Source of the DNA: an uncultured Fibrobacterota bacterium
GTDB lineage: Bacteria; Fibrobacterota; Chitinivibrionia; Chitinivibrionales; FEN-1185
Assembly (NCBI GenBank): GCA_963753345.1
Contig: CAVWBU010000027.1
Span: forward strand, 287,624 to 351,623
DNA length: 64,000 bases
Direction of reading: 5' to 3'
Part shown: positions 7,280 to 24,819 of the stretch, piece after piece
Numbering within the stretch: position 1 is the first letter of the stretch
Layout of the letters: the number at the start of each line of letters is the position of its first letter
Made by a program: the position numbers and the translations under genes
The notes under the pieces: model-generated
Database searches by the model: none
What the model saw: only the letters and a program-made list of their open reading frames with translations
Told to the model about the DNA's origin: nothing

Positions 7280-10200
7280 TCAAGCAACGGCTTCAATTTT
7301 CTCGATGTTTTTCCTCCTGAAAGCAAGCCTGAAGCAGTTTCCCGTCGGATCGGTGTCGAGCCAGATACGGCCGCCGTGGGCGTTCATCACCATTTTACAG
7401 AAAAACAGCCCCAGCCCTTTGGAATACTGCGAGCTTGCGCTGCCCGAGCGGACATACTTGTCAAAGACCGCGGATTTTTCTTCTTCCGGAATTGGAACAC
7501 CGGAACTGAAAAAGCTTATGATGCTTTCATCATCGGTGACATCAAGGCTTAACACAACCCGTCCTTCCGCAGGAACGTATTTGGCAGCGTTGTTGAAGAT
7601 ATTCTGCATCACGCGTTCGACAAGATAGGTGTCCGCTTCAATGGCAAAAAGATCATTTGAGTTATCAACGTGCGAAATGGCCACGTTCTTTTCCTCGAAC
7701 ATGATATGCTTGCCCAGAGGCAGCGCCATGGCGAACAGGTTTTTTCCTGTAAGGGTGGCCTTCTTGAGCACAAGTTTGCCCTCTTCCATCTTCCCGATGT
7801 CGAGCAGATTCGACGAAAGGCTTGCTATGCCGGTGCAGCACTCCGAGACAATGCGGCTCGGTCCTGCGGATTTTCGGATCGTTCGGGAATTGTTTCGCAA
7901 GAAGGGAGGCATTGCCTTCGATACCAGCCGTATAATTTTTGATGTCATGCACAATGGTGCCCGCCAGGAGGCCCTTCATCCGCTCCGACTCAACGACTTT
8001 GACGTTGTACTCCTGCAATTCCTTGTTCTTTTCCTCAATGTCGCGCGTCTGTTCCTTCACCTTCTTCTCCAGGGTGCGGTTAAGACGCTTGAACCCGTCC
8101 ATGAGATAGGCATTCCGCAGGAGCGTATCGGCCTGCGCGGATAGAATCTGCGCCGCCTTCTTGGCGGTTTCGGAGAACAGGCCGCTCACCATGTCGTTGC
8201 CGAGGTAAACGCATCCGAGATAATATTCGCCATGGTACAACGGCACGCAGAGAACGGAACGGACCCTCTCTGTGTCTCCACTCAGTGTTTCTTTTGGTGC
8301 ATTTCTGGTAAGAATGATTGTCTTTTGTTTCTTGGTTTCTTCAATGATCTTTTCCGAATAATGCATGTCCCTGGGGTTTATCGATGCTCCGTCAAAATTC
8401 ATTCCCACTGTCTTGCCCGCAATACCGTCATCCTTATTCTCCTCCAGAAAAATATACCCGTATTGAGCGCCGGTCGCCTTGATCATGGCGGAAAGAATTT
8501 GCCCAAGCAAAGCGTCGATGTCGTCTATTTCCCGCATGGACGCGCTCACCTCGTACAGTGTGTCTATGCGAAGCTGGCTCACTTCCGATAGCGAGCCCTG
8601 CTGATCAATTGTTTTCGCCGGAGTATCCTTCTTGTATTCCACGATGACAATATCCGCTTTGTCCTTAAGCCGCTCGGTCTCAAGCTTGGCTCCGCATTGA
8701 TGGAAAAGCCTGTATGCGGCGTTAAACGGTCCCTTGCTTCGCCGGGCAGGTTGCAATCCTCAAGGAATAAACCGTAATCGCGAAGGGACTTGCCTTCTTC
8801 GTAGCGCATGTCGAGAACATGATGCTTCTTGATGGCTTTCTTGAAGAAGTACTTTGCGATGCGCTTTCTTCCCTTGAATGCATGAAACCAGGCGAGACAG
8901 CGCAACGCAGCACCCATGTGCGCGGGATAGACAATGCCACGGAAAAAGGCTTTTCTGCAATTGATGCCAAGGTCTTTGAGAAGTTTCTTTTCGGAAAGAT
9001 CCAGTTGCTTATTGGATTCGTTGGCCAGCCTGTTTCGTTTTTCGGAAATGAGGATTTCGCAATGGGTGGAATAGGCTGAGGCGATGTATTCCTGGTTGAG
9101 GTTTTTTTCTTTGATGGTTCTTAGCGATCGTAATGAAATATCGAAATGATTGCTTGACATTTCATTTAAAAACAAGGACATGTTTGCGAAAGAAATATTC
9201 GCTATCGTCTTTACCAGCGAATCATTCATTTGCTCGGATTTTTGTTTCAATGTCTACTCAAGTCTTCCTTGCCATTTTCGTCCTCCAGGAAGCGAATAAA
9301 GGACAGCAATCGTTCTTGCGAGAATATACACCTCTGATGATCATTGCATTCAATGCTTTGCGCGTTCCTCTTCATTCATGATTTCTTTGCATTTCTGCAA
9401 AGTTGCCAGTATAAAAAGCTAGTATAGCCAAGATGTTCTAAAGGCGTCAACTTGTCCCCAAGAGATCACCAACAGAACTGTAATTCATCAATGCTGCGTA
9501 TCAAATATTCTTCGGACTTTTTCCATATTGCCCCAAAGTAACATGTAGACAATGCCACAAAAACATTCCGCAAATAGCCAGAAGGTCTTTGCGATTAACT
9601 ATTCGCAATGATTTTATTGATTTCTTAAAATAAGCCAACGATCCGTTTCTTCATTAGCAAAACATAAGCGCCAACAATATGGTAAATGTAGGTCTCCGCT
9701 TTTTCGTAGCAATCTGGTAACCTGTCTGCAAGGTTCATTGCTTTAAGATGGACATATATTGCTAGAAGCATATCTTGAAAAAATAACGAATATGACAATT
9801 TGTTGAAAATTCTCAATATAAGCCGAATATTCTGATTGCTCATTTTTGGGGAACAAATGTTTCAAGCCAATTGAAAAGAATAATTGTACTATTGCCTTGT
9901 AACACAAGAAGAACACTTGCAACAATCTTGTTTCCAGGTAACCTGACATTCATTTGTCGTAAGGTTTCCGTAAAGAATTTTATCGAACTATCAAACTCCC
10001 CCATATTATGATAAATCGACCCCACCCTATACTTTATTTCCAATTGTTGATATTTCTCAAGTGCCTCAGGTTTTTCCAGCAATTTCAGGAACGTATTCAA
10101 TGCCTGCTGGTTCCTTCCCGTCATCATCAGCACATTCCCGAACTCCATCTGCACCTTGATCATGTCAACGGGAACAGGCAGACCCAGGCCAGGGCACTGC

Positions 10201-12436
10201 GAAGCCATGAGGGATGTGTTCATGAAATACCGGGTGGCAATGTCAAACGCGACTTTTTCCGTTGCATAACGCGCGGCTTCGTAGCAGATCTCTATGGCCT
10301 TAACGAGGTTTTTGCTCTTGAGGTAATATTCCGCAGCGTTGAATATGAATTCCTTGTCCGAGGCCATTTTTTCTTCATACACACGCGCTATCTTTTCATT
10401 GAGCGCAAATGCATCATCCCGGGACACACGCAGGGCAATGGATTCCTGGACCTTGTCATGTCTGAAGTAAAAGGCATTTTCGGATTTTCTGATGATGAAT
10501 CCGAGGTTTTCGAGCCTGCGCAGTATGCGAGTTACTTCCTCCTTTTCAAAGCCCCCCACTTTCTCCACAATGCCTGATTCGACTTTTCCCTGAACAAGCG
10601 ACGCAAGCATAAGATAACGTTTTTCATTTTCGTTTAATATTTCCAGCCTGGAAAGAACAAGAGAGACAGGGTCGAATTTTTCCGGCAATGATTTAATGTC
10701 TGACTTATTGTACATCCATCCTGTCGGGGAGGGTTTGAGTATTGAGGTGTTCACCAGGTATTGCACTGCTTCGGAAACGGTAAATGGATTGCCGTCTGTC
10801 TTGGCTGGACAGCGCATCATCAAGGACTTCAGCGTCCTGAATTTCCCCTATACGGGACGAAACAAGCTCTTTGATTTCCGCCCTTGAAAACGGCCTGATG
10901 TTGAGAAGCTTTCTTATTCCGATTTTCCTGAGGTCAGTGCCGTACGCAAAAATATCAGCATCCGATTTTTCGGTCCGAAAGGAAATCACGAGCATGCAAA
11001 CAGGCTGCAAAGCGAGGAATCTCTTGAGCACTTCAAAGGAGATCTGGTCTACCCATTGGAAATCGTCTACGAACACAATTGATTGCCGGAAAAGGCTGAT
11101 TGCGGAGAACAGCATGGACAGTACATGGATGATACGTTCAGCTTCTTTTTCCTTTTCTACTTTGTCTATCTCCCCCACTTTTTCAAAATGCCCATGCAAG
11201 TTCCGGGATTATCGAGCAAATAACGCCTGAATAATCGCTAAGGTTTTTCTGAAGGATTTCCTTGAACAGGACTTTTCCCTCTTGATCGACAAAGCGCGAT
11301 TTTTGACAGAAGTTGAAGCACAATGTTGCGGACAACGGAATATGGCTGGCTCGAGCTGAACCTATTGCATTTCGAAGAAAGAAACATTGTTCTATCTTCG
11401 TTTACCTTGGTCCTGAACCGGTCAACGATTTCGGTTTTGCCCATGCCGGATCTTGCCAAAGATCAGAAACGAGGAACCTTTCCCAAACTCCAATTGTTGG
11501 AGCCCATGACAAAGAGCTTCAATTTCCGTGTCCCGGCCGACAAATACTTTTGATCGGCCCGCCGCTATTATGGCGTCCCTTTCGCCTGGAATAAAGGGTT
11601 TGCCTTCTTCCCTGATGCAGAGGATCGCCTGTTCTATGTCGTGCTTGAATCCGCTCGCAGTCTGATACCGGTCGTCAGGGGAAGGTCGCAAGGATTTAAG
11701 AAGAATAGTGTTAAGGTACGCAGGAATGTTCTTAACAGGCTTTACCTCAGTCTTAAGCGTAAATTTGAGAAGTTCTTCAAGGGAATCCTTGTGATCGGGA
11801 AACGGCAGGCTGCCGGAGATCATCCTGTACAGAATGAGTCCAACGCAGAAAAGGTCGGACCGTGAATCTATTTTGAAATCGGTAAACCCCATCTGCTCGG
11901 GCGAAAGATACGGCATGGTTCCCACTATCCTGCCCTCAGGGAGCTTTCGCGCCTCTTCCTCGAGCATGGAAAGACCGAAATCAAGAAGCTCAAGTCCCCG
12001 CTCTTCATTGATGTAAATGTTGTGCGGGTTCAGGTCGCAATGGATTATGCCGCGCGCATGTATATATTCGAGCGCGTCCAGGACCTGGCTGAACATACAA
12101 AAGAGCTTCTTCCGCAGACAGCGCTTTTCTGTTCTCGCAGATTTTTGCAAGGGTCGTTCCGTCACGGTATGGATACAGAATCGAATAGGTGGTATCGTCG
12201 GCAAATGTCTCCGCAGGCCTGGCAATGTTCGGATGGTCGAGCGAAGATACAGTGTCAACTTCTTTCCTGAACCGTATTTTCCTTTGTAAAGCCTCACCGG
12301 AAGCGACTTTTTGCTCGTTGAGCGATTTGAGAAGAAAATGTTCCCCTGTTTCCTTTTTTCGGGTGAGAAATACATCGCTGTCCCGGCTGGAGGAAACAAG
12401 ATTGAGTATGTCGAATTTCTGCTGGAGCGTTTCCAT
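7280..12436 (-). pseudogene. Ser/Thr-kinase - AAA/P-loop ATPase - TPR - GAF - histidine-kinase mega-sensor, fragmented into at least 8 frames
   Basis: Collinear fragments: kinase N-lobe (12005-12436); C-lobe with HCDLNPHN/DFG/SPE (11422-12399); P-loop G-K|SGMGKT split at about 11450; ATPase/TPR pieces (9840-11199); unassignable debris at 9250-9840; then GAF, H-box HDIKN (7665-8756) and HATPase N/G boxes (7280-7954). Frame switches at about 12100, 11450, 11200-11280, 10810, several in 9250-9840, about 8740, and 7871-7874. Confidence 0.8.
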
Positions 12437-12614
12437 AGTTACTTAACGGAATTGATTGGAGGGAACTTCAGACAAAGATTGGCTAACAAGTGTATGATAA
12501 ATTCTATAATTGAAAAGGCTTTTCGGTCAAGGAGAAAAAGGGGTATCTTGAGCCCGTAGGATCTGGTCCTTTGAAAACTCCCCAAGGTATTCGATTATAA
12601 ATCATCTTGTTCCG

Positions 12615-14390
12615 TTACACCTTCTCTTTAAGAGTTTTTGCAAAGGCCTTCATCAGATATGGGTTGGATTTGATGCCCTTGGTTTGGCCCATTTCCTTTA
12701 TTGTTTGCAGCATTCGCGGCTTTGCAGGAAGATGCTGCTCGTAATCATAATAGACCACTATTATTGAAGATTCATTATTCTTGTTGTGTGCTGTCGATTC
12801 ATTTATGCTTTTTTCAAGGTCTGATGTCGAACGTACTTCGTAGAAATTAACACCAAATGCCAGCGCCAGATACCTATAATCAGGGTTTTGAATTTTTGTA
12901 CAAAATTCCAGTTCCCCGCCGTAGGACAAACATTGATTAATCTGGACCATGTTGTAATAATCGTCTTTGAAAATCATCCACGTAATACCCAGTTTGTATT
13001 GCACTGCTGTCAACACCTCATTACCGTGCATCAAAAAAGAGCCGTCGCCGCAAAGACAAAGAACGAATCTATCTGGAGAAGCGCATTTGCCACCGATGCA
13101 TCCGGCAACACTTTGCCCCATTGAGTATCCTGCCGCGGATGTAAAATATCCATTTTGCCGGGCTTTTAGGTGCCGGACTGAAGAAAAGGAGGATGCGCCG
13201 GTATCTGCAAAAACTATTGAATCATCAGGAAGCAATCTTGAAATTTCAGCGTAAATGTATTCTAATTTTAGTGGTACTGTTTTCTCTGCCATCTGGTTAT
13301 TTTGAGAAATATTGGCTGAAATAACATTATCAGCAATTGCTTTTGCAGATCTTGTTGGCGAATATGCAGTTTGTTTTAATTGAGCACCTAACGAGTTTAA
13401 TGTGGCCGGGATGTCTCCTGCAACTGCCAATTCAACAGGAAAGTTCATTGAAAAACGTAAGGTATCTGAATCAATAGACAAAATCTTCGTATTCTTGAAA
13501 AGATCAGGATCATATGCAAGCGTTTCGGCCTCGGAAAAGTCCATTCCTATCGCTAAAACCATATCGCTCTGTCGAATAAGCTTTTCAGCCGACCGGTGAC
13601 CATAATAGTCAATAACTCCCCCGAACAATTCCTGGAACTCGTTGAGAATTCCTTTTGAACCATGGGTTACAATGAACGGAGATTGAATTATATCAACAAT
13701 GGCTTGAAGTTCACCGCTGCAATTAGGATACACGCACCTATTTCCGATACAAATCAGTGGGTTCTTTGCTTCTCTTAACAATGCTATTATGTGCCCTATT
13801 TTGCCATTTTCAACCCGGCAGTCATTTGCAATGCGATATTGATCGGGTTTCATATCCTCATATTCGATTTCCACGCTGAAAAAATCGCTTGGAATCCCTA
13901 AATGCACAGGCCCATAAGGAACTGAAAGTGAATTCCGGAACAATTCTCTCAAATAATCTGGTATTCTATCAGGACTGTACGCTAAAATGGATCTCCTTGT
14001 AATGCAATCAAACAGACGGTTTATCGAATATGAAACTCCGTATCCTGAATCTTCCTGATACGCATTTTTTCCAAAAAGATTTGAAGACACGACTGGAGTT
14101 ATTGCAATCCCCGGAATCGCAGCCTTGAACATCTCTGCAATTCCACTCGCCAGATTTACAGCTCCGGGACCTGCCGTTCCTAAGACAAGGGCTGGTTTTT
14201 GGGAAACTTTGGTATAATCAAGTGCCATGAATCCGGCAGCGCCTTCGTGCTTTACGGATATGAATTTTATTTTTGAATCTTTAAGCGAGCTGAAGAATGA
14301 GAGGTAATGGGAGCCTGAGATACCGAAGGCATGTTCTATGCCTTCGAGTTCCAAACATCTTACAATTGCCTGCGCGACAGTTATTTTCAT
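12615..14390 (-). CDS. thiamine-diphosphate enzyme of the acetolactate-synthase/benzoylformate-decarboxylase family
   Basis: The N-terminal PYR domain has HEGAAGFMA and GPGAVNL. The C-terminal ThDP motif is GDGSFLMHGNE. The ATG at 14388-14390 (MKITVAQAIV…) fits family N-termini better than 14444. Confidence 0.88.
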   Translation of the reverse strand: MKITVAQAIVRCLELEGIEHAFGISGSHYLSFFSSLKDSKIKFISVKHEGAAGFMALDYTKVSQKPALVLGTAGPGAVNLASGIAEMFKAAIPGIAITPVVSSNLFGKNAYQEDSGYGVSYSINRLFDCITRRSILAYSPDRIPDYLRELFRNSLSVPYGPVHLGIPSDFFSVEIEYEDMKPDQYRIANDCRVENGKIGHIIALLREAKNPLICIGNRCVYPNCSGELQAIVDIIQSPFIVTHGSKGILNEFQELFGGVIDYYGHRSAEKLIRQSDMVLAIGMDFSEAETLAYDPDLFKNTKILSIDSDTLRFSMNFPVELAVAGDIPATLNSLGAQLKQTAYSPTRSAKAIADNVISANISQNNQMAEKTVPLKLEYIYAEISRLLPDDSIVFADTGASSFSSVRHLKARQNGYFTSAAGYSMGQSVAGCIGGKCASPDRFVLCLCGDGSFLMHGNEVLTAVQYKLGITWMIFKDDYYNMVQINQCLSYGGELEFCTKIQNPDYRYLALAFGVNFYEVRSTSDLEKSINESTAHNKNNESSIIVVYYDYEQHLPAKPRMLQTIKEMGQTKGIKSNPYLMKAFAKTLKEKV

Positions 14391-14550
14391 TGTGTGCTTT
14401 GCCTTATCAGCGTTGCATTCGATGCTCAAGTTCAGTTCAATCACAAAATCAAAAAATAGTTATTGGTTTTCAACAAAAGTGAAAAAGAAGGATGCTTCGT
14501 TTTTAAAACTGTGTCTATCGTAAGAATGTGCCAAATTCGGAACAAATAAT

Positions 14551-15858
14551 ATGACAAAGGCGCTTGCTCTCATCTCACCCAGGGGCAGCTTTAGCAGCAG
14601 CAATCCGGAATTTAAGAAATTCTGGAACGGCTCGCCCTATACCTCAACTTACCGTCAGGACTGGTCCGGCCTCGGAACCGGTTTGTTAATAGTAGCTGCA
14701 TTGACTCCATCCGAATATGATGTCAAAATTATCGACGAAAATATTGAATCCGTAGACTTTTCTAAAAAATTTGACCTTGTCGGCATTACCGCAATGACAC
14801 AGCAGGCACGTCGGGCATACCAGATTGCAGATGAATTCAGGAAAAGGGGTATGTTGGTAGTTATTGGGGGAATACATGCTACGATTTTGCCGGAGGAAGC
14901 AAAACTGCATTGTGACAGCGTCGTAATCGGCGAATCTGAAAATACCTGGCCAATGTTGCTAAAAGATCTAAAAGCAAAGGCTCTGTTACCCTTTTACAAA
15001 GCGGACAATATTGTAAGCCTTATAAATTCACCCTTACCAAGATATGACCTGCTAAAGAATAAGAAGTATTCGATTGTTTGGCTTCAGACCACCCGTGGAT
15101 GTCCGCACGATTGCGATTTTTGCGCTGCATCAAAGATTTTTGGGGCAAAATACAGGTTCAAAGACATTTATCAGTTAAGACTGGAAATAGAACTAATCCG
15201 AAAAGAACTTGGAAATGTCTTGATCGGTATCGCAGATGACAATATAGCGGTAAATAAGAATCATCTTTCCTTACTATTAGATTACCTCAAGACATCTGGC
15301 ATCAGATGGCTGGGCCAATCAGACATTTCAATTGCCCAGGATAGTGGAATGTTAAACATCGTTCAAAAAAGTAATTGCAAACTTCTGTTGTTAGGACTCG
15401 AAAGTATATCGGCAGAGAACTTAAGGCTTGTCAACAACAACTCCTGGAAGTACAATAAACTTTCAAGTTATTCTTCATATATTGGAAAAATTCAGGAAGC
15501 GGGCATCGGCGTCCTAGGCTCTTTTATTTTCGGCTTTGATTATGACGATGTTACTGTTTTTAAGCAAACTGCGGATTTCGTTTTGCAAAACAACCTTTAT
15601 TATGGTAACTTTAGCATTCTTACCCCATATCCGGGAACAAGATCAAGGGACAGATTAGTAAGAGAAAACAGATTGCTTCCCACTTCCTGGGAGAATTATA
15701 CGCTATGGGATTTAAATTTCATTCCAAAAAGAATGAGCACTTCGGAATTACAAGCAGGATTGTTTGATACTTATAAAATGATTAACACAAGAGAAGCCTT
15801 CGAAAAAAGAGCAATCTTTTTTAAAAATATTTTTAAAAGTCAAATGAGGAAATCTTGA
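14551..15858 (+). CDS. B12-binding-domain radical SAM protein (class B rSAM), paralogue 2
   Basis: 435 aa, frame intact. B12-domain segment DLVGITAMTQQ…VVIGGIHAT, then TTRGCPHDCDFC (CxxxCxxC). Confidence 0.9.
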   Translation: MTKALALISPRGSFSSSNPEFKKFWNGSPYTSTYRQDWSGLGTGLLIVAALTPSEYDVKIIDENIESVDFSKKFDLVGITAMTQQARRAYQIADEFRKRGMLVVIGGIHATILPEEAKLHCDSVVIGESENTWPMLLKDLKAKALLPFYKADNIVSLINSPLPRYDLLKNKKYSIVWLQTTRGCPHDCDFCAASKIFGAKYRFKDIYQLRLEIELIRKELGNVLIGIADDNIAVNKNHLSLLLDYLKTSGIRWLGQSDISIAQDSGMLNIVQKSNCKLLLLGLESISAENLRLVNNNSWKYNKLSSYSSYIGKIQEAGIGVLGSFIFGFDYDDVTVFKQTADFVLQNNLYYGNFSILTPYPGTRSRDRLVRENRLLPTSWENYTLWDLNFIPKRMSTSELQAGLFDTYKMINTREAFEKRAIFFKNIFKSQMRKS

Positions 15859-15882
15859 GAAGAGAATGGTATTTACAAGTAT

Positions 15883-17247
15883 TCAATTTTCTGCGGCAAC
15901 TTGTATTTCGAAATATTCTTCGCACACCAGTCTTGATACTCTTTTTTTGTTTTCTCTGTTTTTGTCTATAAGCTCAACATGTGCACGGATAACATTGTAT
16001 AGCAATTCATCTGATTTGCATTCAACGGTTACTTTGAGCACATTCTCATGCATCTTCATCAACCGTTCCACTTCTGCAGGATAAACTTTATTTCCTCCGA
16101 CATTGAACATTCGTTTTTTACACTCAATGAAATAGACATATCCTTCATCATCCATTTTGCCAATATCCCCGGAATGCAACCAACCATTTTTTATTGTCAA
16201 TTGTGTGGCTTCCGGATTATTATAGTACCCTTTCATCACATTTGCGCCTTTAATGCATATTTCTCCGACTTGCCCTGCCGGAAGGATTGATCATCCGAAT
16301 CGAGGATAGCCACTTCGCAACAGGGCAAAGCACGACCTACCGACCCTTGCTTTACTTTATCTCCGGGACAATGCCACGTACAAATCGGAGATGCTTCGGT
16401 AAGGCCATATCCCTACTTGAATTTCCACATTGAAATCCTTTTTTAAAATAATAGAATACTTTCGGCCAGTCTACTTCCCCCGCTCGATAGAATTTTTACG
16501 CGTGGGAAACTATGGATTTTAAATGTGGCAATTTCTTTAGAAAATAGTATACAAGCGGAATGCTGCATAAATATAGCGTCACTTTATATCGTTCAAGTTC
16601 AGCATTGCTATCTTTCGTATTGTTGAAAAGTTCGCAATATCCTCAATCAAAATATTTCCGCCGACTATAGAAGGAATAATAACGCCTGTCTGCAATGCAA
16701 ACAAATGATGGAATGGGATTATCGAACATGAGAACGGTGTTATCAGATACTTTGGGTTGCATATTATCCCAGCCTCTGCATTCGCCCTCAAACTCTCATT
16801 CGTCAGCATCGCGCCCTTTGCATACCCATCCGCTGCATTGGTGTACAGAATCAGGCACACATCCTCCAGCCCTTCCAACTTCCTTTCCTCCAGCCTGCAA
16901 TCCCTGAATTCAAATTCCTTTTCAAAATCAAACGTGTCCGTGCTTTTATCAATGCGTATGAGTGCGCCCGGCACAGTGTCGGCCATCATTTCGGCAAGTT
17001 CCAGCTTGCCGATGGCCGGATCCACCAGCACGCAGATCTTTCCGGACTTAATAATGCCGAACAGGGCATATACCATCTTGATGTGGTTGGGAGCAAAAAG
17101 ATAGACAAACGGCGAGTTGGAAACGGTCCGCTTATTAAGGCATTCCGCCACAGCGTCAATGTTCTGCCGGATTACATCGGGCGGGTAGGTCTTGTCCCTG
17201 AAGTAGATATTACCAAGATTTAAACTATCGGTGAGAAGCGGCATCAA
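15883..17247 (-). pseudogene. acyl-AMP/acyl-ACP ligase (ANL adenylate-forming family), at least 5 frame breaks
   Basis: The N-terminal fragment 16579-17247 and C-terminal fragment 15883-16239 (KGYYNNPEAT…WLHSGDIG…GGNKVYPAEVE) are in ORFs. My hand translation of 16240-16580 recovers …VKILSSGGSRLAE / KYSIILKKDFNVEIQVG / YGLTEASPICTW…SVGRALP / LPAGQVGEICIKG in alternating frames. Confidence 0.8.
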
Positions 17248-17304
17248 TAAATATTCTGTTTTAAGAATGAGTTCGCATCAATCGAAGTGCTGCTCAAGCA
17301 AAGG

Positions 17305-17574
17305 CTACTTTGAAACAGCCCCTTCTCTTGCCATTTCACCCTCAAGTACGGTCAAGAATTCGTTTAAAGACTCCGCTTCCATGGCTGAAATCGGAATTTC
17401 GATATTCAGTTCGTTCTCAAGTTTTGCCAACACAGCGACAAACTGCATTGAATCAAGGTTCACCTGCTCCCGCAGGTTCTTTGTCGCGTCAATAGTGGCT
17501 GGGTCGATATTGACGACGCTCTGGATAAGGCTGTAAATTTTCTTTCTTGTTGCTTCGTTCAAGTCATCCCCCAC
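17305..17574 (-). CDS. stand-alone acyl carrier protein
   Basis: 89 aa with a GTG start. Phosphopantetheine-attachment context QVNLDSMQFVAVLAKLE (DSx motif). Acidic, four-helix-sized. Confidence 0.8.
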   Translation of the reverse strand: MGDDLNEATRKKIYSLIQSVVNIDPATIDATKNLREQVNLDSMQFVAVLAKLENELNIEIPISAMEAESLNEFLTVLEGEMAREGAVSK

Positions 17575-17746
17575 TTCCGATTAAACCGATCATTTTTGCA
17601 TTGACAATCAATTTTGATCAAGGCGCTTGTCATTGATCATAGAGCACTCCACGTTCAACATCTTGCCCATATTTACCGATTTACGATGAGCTGTAACTTC
17701 TTTTGATTTATTAAGTTCCAGAAATGACATTTCGTATTGGTTTAAG

Positions 17747-18823
17747 TCAGTCATCTGAATATACATGCCTCCCTGCAGAAAGCGATATTCCCAGGTTTGG
17801 AACGCTGTCCAGCTTCTTAAGGAACAAATCCATTTTTTCTCGTGTGATATTTCCCCTGCCCCACGAACACGGCAGAGAATCGTCGAGTGCAAGCAATATT
17901 CCTTCAACCTGGCAGCCGTAAAAAGTGTCCGGCGAAGCAAGCCCGATGTCGAATCCGGCATCAAGCGCAAACGGCAAAGACACGATGCCGCCGTGGTAGA
18001 CAAAGACGTCCTTACGCAGGGGGTCTGTTACCGTCACATTCTGCGGAGCTGAAGCATCGCACACGATGGTGCCGGGCCTAAAATCATCCTGCGAGTACAT
18101 GGGAACGTAGGCGCTTGTCACAAAAATAACGATGTCGGATTGCTGGACCGCCATGTTGTTATCGGTGGATATTTCAATGTTGCTTGTCAACATATCTTTC
18201 CGGCTTTCCTGCAGCGTTTCGAGAGGGCCGATGCTGCGCGCCGTGAGGATCATTCTCTTTACCTTGTTGCCGAAATAGGAAACGCATCCGCTGCCGATAT
18301 CTCCGGAGGCGCCAACTATGCCGATGGTCGCCCTGCTCAAATCAACCCCGAGTTCTGCCGTTGTCTTCTCGATAGAACGGACGATAACGGCCGCGGTCAA
18401 CGTGTTGCCTGAGGTAAGCTTCATTTCATGCTTTTGCGCAAAGTCCTGTTCCCTACCCTGCAGAACGATCGAGGTGAATGCGCCGAGCGCGGCGACCGTG
18501 CATCCGGATTGTGAAGCGATTGAAAGCGCCTGATCGATCTTTTCCACCACCTTTTTAAGCCGTATATCCCTCATGTCCGGCAAAAACGGGACCATGATCA
18601 GGTGCGCATCGAAATAGTTCTTTTTGTCAAAGGTGAGGTTATGCCAATCAATCACTTTATAGGAAGGCGTCCATTCGAACAGCTTGATAAGGAGCTCATC
18701 GCGGTATGTTTTATCCGGACGCAAGTGTTTTATATAGGCCCTGAACAGGGGCATGTCTGCGGGATGCCCGATAAAAGCGACTTTTGCGGTAGGGCCGTGA
18801 TGTAGGTGGGTTGCATTCGTCAT
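17747..18823 (-). CDS. acyl-ACP reductase (cyanobacterial AAR)-like NAD(P)-dependent reductase
   Basis: By-eye collinearity with Synechococcus AAR as I recall it: ALGAFTSIV/ALGGFTSII, TSGNTLTA/TTGNTHTA, IGIVGASGDIGSG/VAVVGATGDIGSA, LTAR, YGCQVEGILLAL/FACFAEAMLLEF (catalytic Cys position), WGRGNITREKM/WGRNQITIEKM. Start at ATG 18823; the ORF is open to 18898. Confidence 0.7.
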   Translation of the reverse strand: MTNATHLHHGPTAKVAFIGHPADMPLFRAYIKHLRPDKTYRDELLIKLFEWTPSYKVIDWHNLTFDKKNYFDAHLIMVPFLPDMRDIRLKKVVEKIDQALSIASQSGCTVAALGAFTSIVLQGREQDFAQKHEMKLTSGNTLTAAVIVRSIEKTTAELGVDLSRATIGIVGASGDIGSGCVSYFGNKVKRMILTARSIGPLETLQESRKDMLTSNIEISTDNNMAVQQSDIVIFVTSAYVPMYSQDDFRPGTIVCDASAPQNVTVTDPLRKDVFVYHGGIVSLPFALDAGFDIGLASPDTFYGCQVEGILLALDDSLPCSWGRGNITREKMDLFLKKLDSVPNLGISLSAGRHVYSDD

Positions 18824-18860
18824 GGGCTGGTCGCGTCCGGTGCCTGAAGCGGTCAGACAG

Positions 18861-19874
18861 TCACAGTGTTTCGAGAATGGAAGCATAGTCCGCTTCACCG
18901 ATCGTGCGGTTGAACTGGATCCGGACGGTCCCGGAACCGGTATCGTGATGAATTTCCCGCGCGGAAAGGGAAATGCCGCCTATTTCAAACGGGTCGTCGT
19001 GCCACTCAAAGGTGCCATCGTATTTGAAAAGCATGCCTCGTGGAGAAATATTAATCAGAAAAACCGGAAGAACGCGCTCGCCGAATATGAGCGACGTATG
19101 CTTTTCGACAAGCTGGCGTTCGTGGGCCCTGTCCGAAGTCGCGGTGAGGGTCTGCACCATTTTTCCCATGTTTGGTTCGCTGAGCGCTTCCTTGAAGATC
19201 AGCCTGCAGTTCTTATGCTTGAGGTCGTTGAACAGCGGCTCCGCATCAAAGGCGATCTCTCCTATTTTAACGGCAACCTGGGCCGCGTCGAAAAGACCGT
19301 CGTAGTAGAACATCATGCCCTTTTGGGAGACATTGACCACATAAGCGCGGATGTCTTTGCCGTTCAGCTTGATGTTGCTGTATTTGCCGATATTATGGCG
19401 GGGGTATTTCCGGTCGTCAACCTGCGACCTGGTCAATTCCTCCTTGATTGCATGGATCATGGAGTCGATGTTGGTCTTCATTTTCTCCTTGAGAATATGA
19501 CCGAGCACCTCCTCGATAACCGGAATGCCGAGATTATAATCGATGGTAAAGTAGATCTTGATGCCTTCGTTCTGAAAGTCCTCAACCTTCCACGTTCCGT
19601 TGATGTTCTCAAAATCGCCGTCTATCGATTCAAACCGCAGCTCGTAGTTGGCAACGTCGTAATAGTCGCGTTCCACCCAGCGCAGCGGCGCCTCTTCAAC
19701 CGTGACGAACCACTCCGATTTTCCGTCGGTCGGGGTTTTCTCAATGACGTTCACCTTGTCGACGTTCTCCATGATGGCTTCGTACCGGGAGTAGTCGGAG
19801 ATGATGGTCCAGGCGAATTCCTTACGCACCTTTCCCTTGAGCACCGCTTCGGTTGAGACTCGTTCGTAGGCCAT
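18861..19874 (-). CDS. SRPBCC (START/cyclase-dehydrase-like) domain fused to two PilZ domains
   Basis: 337 aa. The first ~140 aa have an SRPBCC-like pattern. Two PilZ signatures follow: RKYPR…NVSQKG and RAHER…NISPRG (RxxxR + D/NxSxxG). Confidence 0.8.
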   Translation of the reverse strand: MAYERVSTEAVLKGKVRKEFAWTIISDYSRYEAIMENVDKVNVIEKTPTDGKSEWFVTVEEAPLRWVERDYYDVANYELRFESIDGDFENINGTWKVEDFQNEGIKIYFTIDYNLGIPVIEEVLGHILKEKMKTNIDSMIHAIKEELTRSQVDDRKYPRHNIGKYSNIKLNGKDIRAYVVNVSQKGMMFYYDGLFDAAQVAVKIGEIAFDAEPLFNDLKHKNCRLIFKEALSEPNMGKMVQTLTATSDRAHERQLVEKHTSLIFGERVLPVFLINISPRGMLFKYDGTFEWHDDPFEIGGISLSAREIHHDTGSGTVRIQFNRTIGEADYASILETL

Positions 19875-20133
19875 GACTCAATTGCCCTGCTGGTTATTGT
19901 AGCGCATAAACTGAACCCGCGACAGATTTACTGTTCCGTGAAGAATGTGCATCGGCACCTGATATGATGTCTTCTCCAAGTGATGAAAGTGAGGAGAGAT
20001 TCTGCACGTCAAAGACGCTCATGACGCCAAACACGTTCTCGCTTTTTTTCTCGTCTGCGGCAGCATCCAGGCACTGGTGTGACTACGTTCACCTGGATTC
20101 GGCGTAACAAAGACATATCAAAGATAGAATTTG

Positions 20134-20149
20134 TTGCGCTAAAGCGCAA
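20134..20149 (-). terminator. possible terminator hairpin downstream of the bio operon
   Basis: Palindrome TTGCGCT-AA-AGCGCAA lies 56 nt after the bioG stop. On the minus strand it is followed by caaattctatcttt (T-rich). Short stem, weak call. Confidence 0.3.
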
Positions 20150-20204
20150 GCGCCGTGTTGAGCGTCCCGAGAATTCCCATTTTGCAACTTGCCGTGCGAC
20201 CACC

Positions 20205-20912
20205 CTATGATTCCGCTTTGCAGCCGATGAGCCGCCCTACATCCGGTTCTGCGGGCCCGGCAAAGAACGCGTGCCCGCCCGGCACCGAAACAAATCTGGA
20301 GCCCAAATCATCAGCCAGCGCTTTTCCCGCGGCCACGGGGACAATTGCATCCTCACTGCCGTTAAGAACCATGGAGGCACACCGCAATTTTGCCAGTACC
20401 GGAAGCAGGTTTGCCTGTTCGAGAAACAACAGGCCGGCAGCAAGCGAATTCACGCCGTACCGTGCGGATTGTAAAACATCAGGCGAAAGGCCGGCGGTCA
20501 GCAGAAAATCGCGCAGGACCGTATTCCCGGGTGTCGGAAGCCGTTGTCGCATGGCGGCCAGCACACTTGTCTTCCAGCCGGACCTGAACCCTTCACACCT
20601 GCAGAACGACGGCGTGGCGGACAGAAGAACCAGTTTGTGCGGTTCGCATCGTAGCGCAAGCGCGCCGGCGATTATCGCGCCGGTGGACCATCCGGCAACA
20701 GCGTTCGCCGTTGCAAGTTCATTTTCAAATGTTCGTTCGACTTTCGATACCCAATGGGACAGGAGCGTTTCACCGTCAAAAAGAGACGGCATCAACGGAT
20801 TCACATCCACGTATATGGCGCTGGCGCCGAACAGGGGCTGCAAAAGTTTTGGGCCAATGCCCCACCCTCCGAAAACAAGCCACCTGTCAACCATGGAGTT
20901 TTTTCCATTCAC
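20205..20912 (-). CDS. bioG: pimeloyl-ACP methyl ester esterase, BioG/DUF452-like alpha/beta hydrolase
   Basis: N-terminal LVFGGWG and nucleophile elbow AGWSTG. It is the last gene of the bio operon. The start (20912 or 20894) overlaps the bioF 3' end. Confidence 0.6.
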   Translation of the reverse strand: MNGKNSMVDRWLVFGGWGIGPKLLQPLFGASAIYVDVNPLMPSLFDGETLLSHWVSKVERTFENELATANAVAGWSTGAIIAGALALRCEPHKLVLLSATPSFCRCEGFRSGWKTSVLAAMRQRLPTPGNTVLRDFLLTAGLSPDVLQSARYGVNSLAAGLLFLEQANLLPVLAKLRCASMVLNGSEDAIVPVAAGKALADDLGSRFVSVPGGHAFFAGPAEPDVGRLIGCKAES

Positions 20913-22033
20913 CGAGTGTGTCGATCACAAATGCTATATCTGCGTCCGACAGCCCGGAATGCACCGAGAACCGGACGCGTGCCTTGCCCTGCGGGACCGT
21001 GGGCGGCCGGATGGCCGGCGCCTTAATGCCGCGCGTACGAAGAAAAGCTGAGAGCTCGACGGCTTGTTTATCGCTTCCCGCAAGGCACGGCACGATCTGC
21101 GTCGAGGAATTAAGCGTGTCGAAGCCGCAATCGCGGATTCCCTCTCGCAGAATACGCGCTTTTGTCAATAGTGCCGGGCCGAGCCCGGGGTGTTTGCGGC
21201 AGATGACGCACCGCGGCAAGGTCATGCGCCAGCACCGACTGCGGCAGCCCCGTGGAATAGACAAGGCTGCGCGCCAGGTTGACAAAACAGTCTCTGAAGA
21301 ACGAATTGCCCGCAAAGAAACCGCCCAATCCGGCAACGGCCTTGCTGAGCGTTCCCATCACAACGTCGATCCCGCTCTCCACGCCGCATTCCTCCACCAA
21401 CCCGGCAAGCGTTTTCCCGAACACGCCCGTTGCGTGAGCCTCGTCGACCATCACCATGCAGCCGAACTGCTTTGCAAGCCCGCAGATGTCGGCAAGCGGC
21501 GCCGTGTCGCCGTCCATGCTGAACACGGAATCGGTGACAATGAGCCGTTCCTTCTTTGTGGAGACCGCAAGTCTGTCCCTTAGATCCGTCATGTCGCAAT
21601 GGCAATACCGCACGAGCGCCGCGCCCGACAGGCGCACGCCGTCGAGGATCGAGGCGTGATTGAGCCGGTCGCAGAAGACCTCGGTGTCACGCCCGCACAG
21701 GGCCTGAATGATGCCCAGGTTCGCGCATACCCGGAATTAAACACCAGCGCCGCCTCGGTTTTTTTCCACTGGGCAAGCTCCAGTTCGAGTGCGTCGTAAA
21801 GCGGCGAACGGGTTTCGATGAGACGCGAGGCGAGATTTCCCGAAAAGCAAGAATCCGCCAGACGTTCTGCCTCCGACCTGACCTCGGGATCGGTATGCAG
21901 CGAACAATAGCTGTTGGTCGGCGAGATCGAGGCGCGCGCCGCAAGGCGACGGGCCCATTGTCCTGAACAGGTCGAGGCTTTTTCTGCTGTCAAGTTCCGC
22001 GTCCAGGCGGTCGTATATAGGCGAGTCATTCAT
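20887..22033 (-). pseudogene. bioF: 8-amino-7-oxononanoate synthase, three frame breaks
   Basis: Fragments in ORFs 21737-22249 (MNDSPIYDRL…), 21589-22029 (…NSYCSLHTDPEV…ALVFNSGY), 21110-21637 (…DSVFSMDGD…VDEAHATG…GTLSKA) and 20887-21336 (…IRPPTVPQGKARVRFS). Switches at about 21920, 21722 and 21205. The ATG at 22033 overlaps the bioA stop by 8 nt. Confidence 0.85.
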
Positions 22034-23366
22034 GGAGAATGTCTCTAACTGCTTTGGTGGTGACCGCAAACATGGTACTGATCTGTTCTTCGGTGATAAT
22101 ATACGGCGGGACAAAATACAGCACGTTTCCCAGGGGACGGATGAGAACGCCGTTTTCCAGCGCTTTTTGCGCGATACGGAATGGCACGCGTTTTTCCGGA
22201 AGAAAAGGCGATTTGGTTTTCCTGTCCGCCACAAGTTCGATTGCGCCAATCATGCCGATGGACTTCACGTCCCCGACCTCATCAATGCCGCGCAAGGCTT
22301 CAAGCCCTTTTCTGAAAAACTCCATCTTCGTTTCGAGCGACCCAGGGATATTCTCTTCTCGCATTATGGCAAGTGTTTCGCAGGCCGCTGCGGCAGCAAG
22401 CGGGTTCCCGGTAAAGGAGTGACCGTGAGCCAGTTCCTTTCCCGCAAGGTGATTGCCGCAGAATGCCGCATAGACCTCCTCGCGCGCAACGGTCGCCGCC
22501 ATGGGCAAACAGCCGCCCGTGAGCCCTTTTGCAAGGCACATGATGTCGGGCGTTACGCCGGCATGCTCGCACGCGAAAAGTTTTCCGGTGCGGCCGAAAC
22601 CGGTCGCCACCTCATCGGCAATGGTGAGCACGCCATGGACTTTACAGGCTGCAAAAAGGCGCTTGAGCACCTTGGCCGGATACACGCGCATGCCTGCCGC
22701 GCCCTGAACCATGGGCTCAAAAATGCACGCAGCAATCGTGTCGCCCTTTTCGTCAAGGATGCGTTCAAGCGATTTCATGCATTCGGCGCCGCAGGTCTCT
22801 TTTTCCATGCCGCAAGGGCAGCGGTAGCAGTATGGTGCGTCCGCGTACCACTGCGACTTGAACGCTTTGTGAAAGAGCGAGTGATACGCGGGAATGTTTC
22901 CAACCGACATTGCCCCGAGCGTGTCACCATGGTAGCCGCCGGAGAGCGAAACAAAGGCGGTGCGCGGTTCTCCCCTTGCCGCCCGGTATTGCAGCGCAAT
23001 TTTGAGCGCCACCTCAACCGCTGTGGAACCGTCGTCGGAATAAAAGATGCGCGCAAGTTCCTTCGGCAGCAGCGCCGCAAGCCTGTGCGAAAGTTCGAGC
23101 GCAGGCTCCGAAATAAACCCTGCCATAAGGACGTGTTCAAGTTTGTCCGCTTGATTCTTGACAGCCCTGATTATCCGCGGATGGCAATGCCCCAGAACCG
23201 ACACCCACCATGATCCTATTGCGTCAAGGTAGCGCCTTCCGTTTTTATCGAAAAGGTAAACACCCTCGCCGCGGGTAATCACGGCCGGCGGATAGTCGCG
23301 GACGTCATCCGAACACGTGAAGGGAAACCAGAGACGGTTGAAGGGGTCAGCGGAGGAGTTCATCAC
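22026..23366 (-). CDS. bioA: adenosylmethionine-8-amino-7-oxononanoate aminotransferase
   Basis: 446 aa, intact. Class-III aminotransferase pattern (SWWVSVLGH…, DEVATGFGRTG) in a bio-operon context. Confidence 0.92.
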   Translation of the reverse strand: MMNSSADPFNRLWFPFTCSDDVRDYPPAVITRGEGVYLFDKNGRRYLDAIGSWWVSVLGHCHPRIIRAVKNQADKLEHVLMAGFISEPALELSHRLAALLPKELARIFYSDDGSTAVEVALKIALQYRAARGEPRTAFVSLSGGYHGDTLGAMSVGNIPAYHSLFHKAFKSQWYADAPYCYRCPCGMEKETCGAECMKSLERILDEKGDTIAACIFEPMVQGAAGMRVYPAKVLKRLFAACKVHGVLTIADEVATGFGRTGKLFACEHAGVTPDIMCLAKGLTGGCLPMAATVAREEVYAAFCGNHLAGKELAHGHSFTGNPLAAAAACETLAIMREENIPGSLETKMEFFRKGLEALRGIDEVGDVKSIGMIGAIELVADRKTKSPFLPEKRVPFRIAQKALENGVLIRPLGNVLYFVPPYIITEEQISTMFAVTTKAVRDILHE

Positions 23367-24048
23367 AAAACTCCTTGGTCTTCTTCAAACAGCGGCATCC
23401 ATACGGCACCACGAGAAACGGCACGTTTCGTGCGTAATTGCGAAGCGTTCTGACGTTGTCGCGGTAGATAAAATCATCTCGGACATTATTACGGTTATTG
23501 ATAACCAGGCCCGCCAGCGAAAGGCCGGCGGCCTCAATCGCGCACATGGTGAGAAACGTATGGTTGAGCGTGCCCAGTTCGGGAGTGGTGACGAGAACGA
23601 CGGGCAGCTTGAGCAGCTCCATGAGATTGACAGTGAGCACCGATGGACCAAGCGGAACCATCACTCCCCCTGCGCCCTCAGCGAATACGCATCCGCCGCG
23701 CATACCGGGAAGGCTTCGTATCATGTCAAGACTTCGTTTGATTTTCCGGATTGAAACTTGCGCGTGCGCGCGCTGTGCAGCCAGATGCGGTGAACACGCG
23801 GGAACAAACCGGTACGGAACGTGAATGTGATCCGCGCCAAGGACCAGACCGCCCGACTTTCTGACATATTCAAAGTCCGGAGCGCTAAGCATGCCGTCTT
23901 TCAATTGCCTGCATCCGGTTTGCACCGGTTTCATGTACGAAACCGGAACAAATGCGGCCATCGCCTCAACGAGCAGCCGGCTCACAAATGTTTTTCCGAC
24001 GTCGGTGCCGGTGCCGGTGACAAAAAATCCGATTGACTTAGCCTTCAT
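23347..24048 (-). CDS. bioD: dethiobiotin synthetase
   Basis: 233 aa. N-terminal P-loop FFVTGTGTDVGKT. Overlaps the bioA start by 20 nt. Confidence 0.9.
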   Translation of the reverse strand: MKAKSIGFFVTGTGTDVGKTFVSRLLVEAMAAFVPVSYMKPVQTGCRQLKDGMLSAPDFEYVRKSGGLVLGADHIHVPYRFVPACSPHLAAQRAHAQVSIRKIKRSLDMIRSLPGMRGGCVFAEGAGGVMVPLGPSVLTVNLMELLKLPVVLVTTPELGTLNHTFLTMCAIEAAGLSLAGLVINNRNNVRDDFIYRDNVRTLRNYARNVPFLVVPYGCRCLKKTKEFCDELLR

Positions 24049-24054
24049 ACGAAA

Positions 24055-24819
24055 TCATTTCTTGATTGCAAGTCCATAGGCGACATTGATGGAGAGCGGA
24101 ACCCCGGAAGGCTCGTTATGCCTTTCTCCATATTCCCTGCACAGTCTTATTATTTCCTGCAGAGAAAGGCGCTTCCCCTCGACCGCGGTGCTGCCCGTCT
24201 CGCTCATGTACTTGAGCGCATCCATGGCAGAGGCAAAGCGGTACTGCTTTGCAAAGGATAAATACGTCCGGCAGTCGAATCCCGATGCGGCCAACAGCGC
24301 CGAAAAATCGTCGCGCGAAGGAAGACGTACCGGAACGGAAAGATTGCGCTCCTGGCGCAGGGAAAATATTTCGGCAAAAGAACCTTGCAGAAATGCGGCG
24401 AATACCAGCGCGCCGCCGGCAGCCAGAATGCGGTGCAATTCCCCCATGCCTTTGGATGGATCCGCCAGCCAGTGTAACACCGAGGCGACCACTGCGCCGC
24501 CGAACACCCCGCTTTTGAACGGCAACCCCTCAATGTCGGACTGAACCGCGCCGGAGCTTCTGCGGCAACGCAGCATTCCGTATGCCAGATCGGTGCGCAT
24601 CAATCTGACAGGAACCTTGTGATCGATAAGCAACCCTGCCATGCCGCCTGCGCCGCAGCCGGCGTCAAGCCAAGGCAGGCTTAGCCAGCCCGCGGTCTTT
24701 ACAAGAGGAACAAGCATTGCAAGGATCTGTTTCTGGATATACGCTTCCTCCTGGTATCCGTTTGCTTTTGCGGAAAATGTCGCGGCAATGCAGCGTTTGG
24801 ACGGAATTTGTACAATCAT
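24055..24819 (-). CDS. bioC: malonyl-ACP O-methyltransferase (class I SAM-MTase)
   Basis: 254 aa. SAM motif I LDAGCGAGG. First gene of the bioC-D-A-F-G array. Confidence 0.8.
   Translation of the reverse strand: MIVQIPSKRCIAATFSAKANGYQEEAYIQKQILAMLVPLVKTAGWLSLPWLDAGCGAGGMAGLLIDHKVPVRLMRTDLAYGMLRCRRSSGAVQSDIEGLPFKSGVFGGAVVASVLHWLADPSKGMGELHRILAAGGALVFAAFLQGSFAEIFSLRQERNLSVPVRLPSRDDFSALLAASGFDCRTYLSFAKQYRFASAMDALKYMSETGSTAVEGKRLSLQEIIRLCREYGERHNEPSGVPLSINVAYGLAIKK

Follow-up and report, generated by a model that had tools for sequence, protein, structure and literature searches.

An acyl-ACP reductase relative from the Fibrobacterota with a START/PilZ protein, rather than an aldehyde-deformylating oxygenase, as its conserved partner

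In cyanobacteria, the acyl-ACP reductase AAR (ACP, acyl carrier protein) pairs with aldehyde-deformylating oxygenase (ADO) for alkane synthesis. An AAR-like thioester reductase, here called AARL, is encoded on the minus strand of a 64,000-nucleotide stretch of DNA from an uncultured Fibrobacterota bacterium (contig CAVWBU010000027.1; the whole stretch is referred to below as the window). AARL is a homologue of AAR in which the catalytic cysteine is conserved, and no ADO was found with it in the window or in 35 related loci. The neighboring position is held by a START-type (SRPBCC) protein with two PilZ domains; adjacency, natural gene fusions, and conserved PilZ motifs together identify the SRPBCC protein, and not ADO, as the evolutionarily conserved partner of this branch of reductases. 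The reading that we favor, and hold to be somewhat probable, is that AARL takes part in a split carboxylic acid reductase, and that the resulting aldehyde passes to the START protein and is then used in a condensation dependent on thiamine diphosphate (ThDP).

In the assembled sequence, the AARL open reading frame (ORF) occupies positions 17747-18823 of the minus strand and encodes 358 amino acids, with a stop at 17747. A sequence-only reading of this DNA had placed the gene between these positions, with no strand stated; the gene is real, but its true end lies at 17608, the earlier stop being due to an inserted T at 17753. The closest homologues (P0001-P0004) are 404 amino acids long, and have the same start methionine as the 358-residue ORF and about 46 further residues at the C terminus. 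Over positions 17437-22226, the window shares 97% DNA identity with a Logan contig, L086, which carries an intact 404-residue AARL, 100% identical over the 358 residues of the window ORF. The two sequences differ by ten single-base indels, one of which is the T at 17753; its deletion restores a 404-amino-acid ORF at 17608-18823. Five more lie within bioF (21110-22249), which is broken five times by 1-bp indels in an otherwise intact bioC-bioD-bioA operon, upstream of the AARL cluster, and which is intact (381 amino acids) in L086.

Other genes of the cluster are broken as well: a ligase gene (15873-17247) has at least four frameshifts, with the frame changes read off the sequence, and a giant kinase gene (7313-12436) has several. 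Together with the single frameshift at the AARL C terminus, these breaks might be taken to mean that the cluster is a decaying pseudogene array, without function in this genome. We regard this as unlikely. Indels of the same kind break bioF in an otherwise intact biotin operon, whereas the 97%-identical contig has both bioF and AARL intact, which makes assembly error a more likely cause than recent decay; several of the frameshifts fall at A/T homopolymers, and the genes for the ThDP enzyme, the radical SAM enzyme, the ACP, and the SRPBCC protein are unbroken in the window.

The homology of AARL to AAR, which had been proposed from an alignment by eye, is borne out. AARL matches the NCBIfam model of long-chain acyl-ACP reductase, TIGR04058, with E=3.4e-34 (118.7 bits, against a curated equivalog cutoff of 449.7 bits), and a phmmer search aligned residues 52-333 with AAR from Synechococcus elongatus (SeAAR; PDB 6JZU) at E=3.3e-25. 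An AlphaFold2 model of AARL was built from 13 homologues (pLDDT, 89.9; pTM, 0.90) and predicts the three-domain AAR fold. A fold search with this model gave four AAR entries, 6JZU, 6JZY, 6JZZ, and 6JZQ, as the top PDB matches (E=5e-25; TM scores of 0.75 to 0.82), followed by the TAD domain of carmabin and then by amino-acid and shikimate dehydrogenases at a TM score of ∼0.4. The sequence and fold matches place AARL among the homologues of AAR far beyond chance.

Key residues of SeAAR were taken from PMC7089970 and mapped onto AARL. The acyl-enzyme nucleophile, Cys294 of AAR (PMC7089970), aligns with Cys304 of AARL, within the sequence FYGCQVEG; this is the cysteine that the sequence-only reading had named as catalytic, and the position is invariant in 129 of 129 superfamily representatives. 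SeAAR residues H7, G162/G165/G168, R189, D244, P248, N250, C294, E297, and R314 are all retained, and the key residues in AARL numbering are H20, G171/G174/G177, R196, D256, C304, E307, and R323. The SeAAR loop 162-GATGDIG-168 reads GASGDIG in AARL; all four motifs quoted in the sequence-only reading (GASGDIGSG, LTAR, WGRGNITREKM, and YGCQVEGIL) are present in the minus-strand translation of 17747-18823. Two of the three arginines of the NADPH 2′-phosphate pocket are kept (R196 and R323), and the equivalent of the third, R193, is Pro200. SeAAR Y23 and Y26, at the tunnel exit, are replaced by Arg and Leu, and another tunnel residue, Y247, which in AAR is needed for the binding of stearoyl-CoA and ADO (PMC7089970), is replaced by Ala. 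The surface on which ADO docks comprises a basic helix, R73-H91, together with R118 (PMC7089970); R73 and K80 of this surface are retained, and the contact residues H87, H91, and R118 are Ile, Ser, and His in AARL. From these comparisons, AARL has kept the catalytic machinery, and its partner surface and acyl tunnel have changed.

AARL therefore shares with S. elongatus AAR (orf1594; 6JZQ/6JZU; TIGR04058) the three-domain fold, the catalytic cysteine (Cys294/Cys304), the GxxGDIG loop, R189, R314, H7, the D244-x-x-x-P248 motif, and E297. By analogy, it would also share a ping-pong acyl-enzyme mechanism with NADPH, in which a carrier-bound thioester gives an aldehyde that is released into a hydrophobic partner. 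It differs in its C-terminal tail of ∼46 extra amino acids, in having its own ACP and ligase, and in its START-PilZ partner, with no ADO at the loci searched.

The structural matches also raise the question of whether AARL is an offloading or amidation enzyme like TAD, or an amino-acid or shikimate-type dehydrogenase, and not an aldehyde-forming reductase. Many AARL homologues are annotated by JGI as "predicted amino acid dehydrogenase," Pfam gives AARL nothing beyond a subthreshold match to Shikimate_DH, and carmabin TAD ranks second among the structural matches. However, the similarity to TAD is weak (9E4X, E=3.5e-5; 15 to 17% identity), and amino-acid dehydrogenase structures get no further than the TM score of ∼0.4. 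TAD is found at the terminus of nonribosomal peptide synthetases (NRPS) and has a DDSGcisP loop with an invariant Asp, as well as an NAD-specific Asp that blocks the 2′-phosphate (bioRxiv 10.1101/2024.10.28.620694). In AARL, the DDSGP loop reads DASAP, the NADPH/CoA phosphate-binding residues R196 and R323 are retained, and the protein stands alone, with no NRPS fusion. The TAD of carmabin CarI (PDB 9E4S-9E50) does share with AARL the superfamily, the overall fold, and an invariant Cys that occupies the same position beside the nicotinamide, but it is NAD specific, dimeric, and NRPS fused. We give very little credence to a nonreductase function.

The term "cyanobacterial type," which had been applied to AARL, is too strong; by sequence, AARL is a member of the AAR superfamily and not an AAR orthologue. 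It shows the features of the COG5322 AAR-like superfamily (AAR, PigE-N, and KecF-C), namely homology over the full length and a conserved Cys beside an NAD(P)-binding Rossmann domain. Identity to AARs is 26% in the structural alignment and 29 to 34% by tblastn, and the TIGR04058 score falls far short of the equivalog cutoff. A search through all of 1.84 billion representatives returned 2,094 relatives at E<=1e-3, of which 1,159 reach E<=1e-10, and more than 150 of the relatives score equal to or above cyanobacterial AARs; the superfamily size of ∼2,100 counts clusters at 50% identity. In a rough neighbor-joining (NJ) tree, without support values, AARL belongs to a clade of its own that is made up mainly of Fibrobacterota, where it groups with proteins from Fibrobacterota, Chitinivibrionales, and Chitinispirillaceae; the cyanobacterial AARs are set apart in a tight clade. 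All genome matches to AARL at 46 to 95% identity are Fibrobacterota-type metagenome-assembled genomes (MAGs), the top one being a Chitinivibrionales MAG at 95%; next come Desulfobacterales at 36 to 37% and cyanobacteria at 29 to 34%. In a locus of a Chitinivibrionales MAG (L024, 2764-4770), two AARL paralogues flank an ACP gene, in the order AARL-ACP-AARL.

We searched for ADO with two probes. The first was the S. elongatus ADO (SeADO) sequence, validated by its matches, and the second was a hidden Markov model (HMM) made from 50 cyanobacterial ADOs, which recovers held-out and truncated cyanobacterial ADOs. With SeADO, tblastn gave no match in either the window or any of the Fibrobacterota-type loci, and the HMM at E<=10 found none across 596 kb comprising the window and 35 related non-cyanobacterial loci. 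In cyanobacterial control loci, ADO lies directly upstream of AAR in 52 of 54 cases, with 58 to 69% identity to SeADO; the two loci without a full adjacent ADO are at contig edges, and one of these carries a partial ADO. The absence of an ADO partner, as first claimed, thus held over the window and the related loci. Among the search results, contigs labeled as Bradyrhizobium, Klebsiella, and Pimelobacter MAGs (L036, L064, L070, and L080) bear typical cyanobacterial ADO and AAR genes, with AAR alone in L064, where the contig starts; these contigs are probably misbinned or mislabeled.

These results bear on whether AARL is a true alkane-pathway AAR with its ADO encoded elsewhere in the genome. 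In favor, AARL is homologous to AAR over its full length, its active site is intact, and the 64 kb examined is a portion of the genome. Against this stand the score of AARL in relation to the equivalog cutoff, its separate clade, the substitution of the ADO-contact residues H87, H91, R118, and Y247, and the absence of ADO from 596 kb in comparison with its adjacency in the cyanobacterial controls. In addition, the neighboring position belongs to a different conserved partner, SRPBCC, which distant relatives carry as a fusion with the reductase. We consider an alkane role extremely unlikely.

The SRPBCC gene (18861-19874, minus strand) lies directly upstream of AARL. Its product matches Pfam PF03364 (Polyketide_cyc) with 58.7 bits (cutoff, 23.4) and PilZ with 27.5 bits (cutoff, 22.5), and its best PDB match is the START protein TTHA0849 (E=6e-14). 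In each PilZ domain, RxxxR and (D/N)xSxxG motifs of canonical form stand at the canonical spacing (RKYPR155/NVSQKG181 and RAHER249/NISPRG275), and 17 of 18 SRPBCC-PilZ orthologues retain one or more such pairs of motifs. These motifs make the SRPBCC-PilZ protein a candidate receptor for cyclic di-GMP (c-di-GMP). SRPBCC(-PilZ) adjoins AARL in 18 of the 21 related loci that could be assessed. Among ten of the longer superfamily members, nine proved to be natural fusions, with the architecture SRPBCC-AARL, PilZ-SRPBCC-AARL, or HTH-PilZ-SRPBCC-AARL, and 13 SRPBCC-AARL fusions are spread over two clades of the NJ tree. A 344-amino-acid plus-strand ORF at 18822-19856, antisense to the SRPBCC-PilZ gene, has no family matches and was taken as spurious; other plus-strand ORFs across the locus likewise have no family matches, are antisense to well-supported genes, and were taken as spurious.

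Conservation of the remaining genes was counted over 22 distinct related loci (L005-L025 and L027). The ACP gene (17305-17574, minus strand; Pfam PP-binding, E=4.9e-11) encodes the phosphopantetheine attachment Ser in a DSM motif, and an ACP is found in 19 of 22 loci, immediately downstream of AARL. The ligase (15873-17247, minus strand) was identified from matches of its fragments to AMP-binding and FadD-type models as an acyl-ACP/CoA ligase of the ANL superfamily, of the fatty-acid/MenE type, and occurs in 17 of 22 loci. An intact orthologue of 465 amino acids (L001) scores 207 bits against the long-chain fatty-acid-CoA ligase model and resembles fatty-acid and MenE-type CoA ligases, unlike amino-acid adenylation domains. 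The giant sensor gene (7313-12436, minus strand), with the domain order Ser/Thr kinase-AAA16-TPR-GAF-(His kinase), was recognized by tblastn and by Pfam matches of its fragments to Pkinase, TPR, and GAF; an orthologue in L003, used in tblastn, spans 7313-12415 in several frames. This kinase flanks the cluster in 14 of 22 loci and also in L085 and L169, and a REC-His-kinase, which is not in the window, is found in 15 of 22. A second, weak match to the kinase/ATPase query (26% identity, 92 bits) lies at 42183-42821 on the minus strand. The sequence-only reading had named an ACP, a ThDP enzyme, and a radical SAM enzyme as neighbors; all three were confirmed, and it had missed the ligase, SRPBCC-PilZ, and the giant kinase. 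Its suggestion that the aldehyde has a different fate from that in cyanobacteria gains support from the conserved alternative partners, the SRPBCC-PilZ protein and the dedicated ThDP subfamily described below.

The ThDP gene (12615-14444, minus strand) encodes an acetolactate synthase (ALS)-like enzyme with three TPP domains; its probable true start gives a protein of 591 amino acids. It scores below every NCBIfam cutoff, including those for ALS, pyruvate oxidase, and Xsc (best ALS score, 294.8 bits, versus a cutoff of 509), and in the PDB it matches BbmA most strongly (E=6e-65), with ALS next (E=1.5e-46). The BbmA/CsmA structures (8X3X and 8X3Z) are the nearest solved relatives. A group of 49 homologues (35 to 100% identity) scores 368 to 1339 bits, and all other proteins score 240 bits or less. 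The last member before this gap, at L169, lies in a locus with the order SRPBCC-PilZ, AARL, ThDP, giant kinase, REC-kinase, and the first protein beyond the gap, at L170, has no AARL nearby. In L087, AARL and the ThDP enzyme are 40% and 35% identical to the window proteins, the pair shares a distinctive C-terminal tail, and a FadL-type channel, seven-transmembrane (7TM) His-kinases, and a REC protein are also present. Neither L087 nor L169 has a dedicated ACP and ligase. A metagenome scan with the ThDP alignment was dominated by generic ALS motifs and gave one subfamily locus, L089, with the same arrangement as L022; the 78 generic ALS-like metagenome loci, which serve as a negative control, have no AARL nearby. 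On sequence grounds, the window enzyme belongs to a discrete ALS-like subfamily found only beside AARL. The linkage of this subfamily to SRPBCC and AARL, set against controls without AARL, makes the enzyme a dedicated partner where it is present, and not a universal one; it occurs in 9 of 22 related loci.

The B12-binding radical SAM gene (14551-15858) is intact, lies on the plus strand, and matches Pfam B12-binding and Radical_SAM; apart from these, the matches of its product to the BchE, HpnJ, and P-methylase families are all weak. An orthologue is found in 4 of 22 loci (L005, L016, L018, and L027), and the enzyme is an accessory member of the cluster. A second weak match to it (26% identity, 61 bits) occurs at 43311-43877, minus strand.

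The composition of the cluster is uneven. GC content is 0.415 for the ThDP gene, 0.397 for the radical SAM gene, and 0.428 for the ligase gene, versus 0.50 to 0.52 for AARL and SRPBCC and 0.55 to 0.58 for the biotin operon. Identity between the window and L001/L005 is 77 to 85% for SRPBCC, AARL, and ACP and falls to 41 to 54% for the ligase, radical SAM enzyme, ThDP enzyme, and kinase. The GC shift and the drop in identity at the distal genes (12615-17247 versus 17608-24819) suggest a mosaic or recombined cluster. We considered whether the low-GC part (0.40 to 0.43) is a foreign island specific to this genome and rejected this, as the same genes are low in GC in L005. In L001/L005, an insertion sequence element with a DDE_Tnp_1 transposase (11672-12691) lies between the ACP and ligase genes, and its junction is the exact point where similarity to the window drops. 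Terminator-like sites in the 12- to 20.4-kb region are at background, and promoter-like sites number 30, versus a shuffle mean of 14.0 (standard deviation, 3.5); these sites do not define the operon structure.

In the favored scheme, AARL, its own ACP, and the ANL-type ligase would form a three-protein "split carboxylic acid reductase." The ligase would adenylate a free, probably fatty, acid and load it onto the ACP; the acyl group would move to Cys304 of AARL and be reduced by NADPH to a free aldehyde, by the ping-pong mechanism of AAR. That AARL acts on a carrier-bound acyl substrate is suggested by the ACP gene that lies beside it in 19 of 22 loci and by the polyketide synthase (PKS) and type II fatty acid synthase (FAS)-like sets that occur elsewhere. 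The aldehyde would not be deformylated but would pass to the adjacent START/SRPBCC lipid-binding protein, a step that its two PilZ domains may place under c-di-GMP control. The hand-off to the START protein is proposed by analogy with the channeling of aldehyde from AAR to ADO (PMC7089970). In this lineage, the ALS-like carboligase would use the aldehyde, most simply by condensing it with an acyl anion derived from pyruvate in an acyloin reaction that yields an α-hydroxyketone, and the B12-radical SAM enzyme would further tailor the product. The module would be linked to the giant Ser/Thr kinase-GAF-His-kinase and, in relatives, to the REC-His-kinase as well. We infer the substrate, the aldehyde hand-off, the ThDP and radical SAM chemistry and their order, and the biological role from these features.

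Several points weigh against this scheme. The case for it is built from sequence, a predicted fold, and gene context. The role given to SRPBCC, whether acceptor, chaperone, sensor, or enzyme, is purely inferential. In the close family, the ThDP enzyme is present in 10 of 23 loci and the radical SAM enzyme in 5, so neither is obligatory. Because of the changes at R193 (Pro) and Y247 (Ala), the cofactor and chain-length preferences of AARL may differ from those of AAR. Finally, the ligase, the kinase, and the AARL C terminus are frameshifted, and if these indels are genuine, this genome may carry an inactive system.

The reaction order could also be reversed. ALS-type enzymes classically attack free carbonyl acceptors, which argues for aldehyde formation before the ThDP step; in the reverse order, the ThDP enzyme would act first on the ACP-bound chain, for example by adding to an enoyl or 2-oxo thioester in a Stetter-type reaction or through an acyl anion, and AARL would then release the modified chain as a keto-aldehyde. 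There is a precedent in the MAP branch of prodigiosin biosynthesis: PigD, a ThDP enzyme, makes a thioester that is reduced by the AAR-like N-terminal domain of PigE (PMC8341465). AARL matches the PigE model with E=1.2e-23, and the tight linkage of AARL and the ThDP gene is compatible with either order. However, the window ThDP enzyme is of the ALS-like kind, BbmA and ALS being the PDB entries that it matches best, and no PigD-type match was seen; no aminotransferase accompanies it, and L087 and L169 have no dedicated ACP and ligase. We judge the reversed order to be quite unlikely for the window cluster.

The Pig system and KecF are nonetheless among the closest parallels. In both, a COG5322 AAR-like domain is used to reduce a carrier- or CoA-bound thioester to an aldehyde with a non-alkane fate: that of the Pig system works with a ThDP enzyme using pyruvate, which shows that enzymes of these two types can serve one thioester pathway and is compatible with the reverse order as well (PMC8341465), and the domain of KecF, from koreenceine biosynthesis, is predicted to perform the same kind of reduction (PMC6498172). 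The PigE and KecF domains are fused to class III/I aminotransferases and lead to pyrroles or tetrahydropyridines, whereas AARL stands alone; it covers the N-terminal part of the PigE model alone (positions 78-314 of 837), and the aminotransferase genes near AARL all belong to the biotin operon. Here, moreover, the ThDP enzyme is of its own ALS-like subfamily, and the system has an SRPBCC-PilZ partner and sensor kinases and is found in Fibrobacterota.

Carboxylic acid reductase (CAR) is a single polypeptide (A-PCP-R) with a short-chain dehydrogenase/reductase (SDR)-type R domain, and LuxC is a member of the aldehyde dehydrogenase family. AARL and its partners would share with CAR and the LuxC/LuxE fatty acid reductase the conversion of acid, ATP, and NADPH to an aldehyde via an adenylate and a thioester; they differ in comprising three separate proteins with an AAR-type reductase and would be a functional analogue that belongs to neither family.

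AARL and its relatives are also found in other contexts. In L025 (7263-13544) and L085 (11077-16197), the ACP and ligase next to AARL give way to a type I PKS encoded on the opposite strand; the giant kinase persists in both loci, and SRPBCC-PilZ persists in L085. This replacement implies that AARL can offload PKS-bound chains in some lineages. Of the more distant loci, L084 combines an SRPBCC-AARL fusion and a 7TM-GAF kinase with a diiron protein of the acyl-ACP-desaturase type and a REC-aldehyde dehydrogenase fusion. The diiron protein (8962-9960; PF03405), a soluble ferritin-like protein as is ADO, lies directly upstream of the SRPBCC-AARL fusion, and the response regulator/aldehyde dehydrogenase fusion (15464-17428) lies 4 kb downstream of it, a layout that hints at aldehyde levels under phosphorelay control. 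In L088, likewise distant, the SRPBCC-AARL fusion is accompanied by a PlsC-type acyltransferase, a 7TM-GAF kinase, and a KS/KS/KR/DH/ACP set that is aryl-polyene-like and has a REC protein embedded in it. An extended-SDR/NAD_binding_4 ("male sterility"-type) reductase, which could take the aldehyde on to the alcohol, is encoded in L003 (12766-13326), L017 (11400-12380), and L088 (16128-17213). The supply of acyl chains differs by lineage, and the reductase/START pair and the signaling proteins recur.

With the same enzymology, the product could be a bulk or structural lipid, such as a fatty alcohol, a wax, an ether or vinyl-ether precursor, or a pigment, and not a signal; its synthesis would then be an output of c-di-GMP and phosphorelay signaling. 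The fusion of regulatory domains to the enzymes (PilZ-SRPBCC-AARL, HTH-PilZ-SRPBCC-AARL, and the REC-aldehyde dehydrogenase of L084) fits such a role, as do the acyltransferase and type II FAS/PKS set near AARL in L088 and the SDR/NAD_binding_4 reductases. On the other hand, these are small biosynthetic sets with a dedicated ACP, and genes for sensor kinases, for single-domain REC proteins, and for a FadL-type channel lie in between; the layout is also like that of autoinducer loci, and the window cluster has no acyltransferase or wax-synthase genes. We regard a bulk-lipid product as possible but doubtful.

CqsA and LqsA are PLP-dependent acyl-CoA transferases of α-hydroxyketone autoinducer systems. 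By analogy with their loci, in which a small biosynthetic set lies beside sensor kinases and response regulators, the AARL-ThDP pair could be a hitherto unrecognized synthase for long-chain α-hydroxyketone (acyloin) signals akin to CAI-1 and LAI-1, with START-PilZ as a c-di-GMP-gated carrier and the Ser/Thr kinase-GAF and 7TM kinases as receptors. The analogy would extend to the long-chain α-hydroxyketone product should the ThDP enzyme catalyze an acyloin condensation, but CqsA and LqsA have no homology to the window proteins. We offer this as speculation, with low confidence. If it is true, Fibrobacterota and several other phyla would have lipid-aldehyde-based cell-cell or intracellular signaling, with a product made by thioester reduction and ThDP carboligation rather than by a PLP enzyme.

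A non-alkane fate for AAR-like domains is not new as a general idea, as PigE, KecF (PMC6498172), and TAD (bioRxiv 10.1101/2024.10.28.620694) show. A literature search found no prior description of a stand-alone, START/PilZ-partnered, kinase-embedded AARL family with a private ThDP subfamily; searches on PilZ with SRPBCC and on COG5322 turned up the KecF and transaminase-fusion papers alone.

Nearly everything known of AAR concerns its part as one half of the alkane pathway of cyanobacteria and its use as a biofuel tool. The stand-alone enzyme is a member of a far larger superfamily, found mostly outside the cyanobacteria, one well-defined branch of which has a START-type protein with PilZ domains in place of ADO, a private ThDP subfamily, and, consistently, sensor kinases. 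If our favored scheme is correct, c-di-GMP and phosphorelay signaling would be tied directly to fatty-aldehyde chemistry, and the cluster would provide a natural ATP/NADPH-driven, three-protein acid-to-aldehyde reductase and an aldehyde carboligase for biocatalysis. It would also offer a testable route to unknown metabolites or signals derived from lipids in Chitinivibrionia and Fibrobacterota, which have been little studied.

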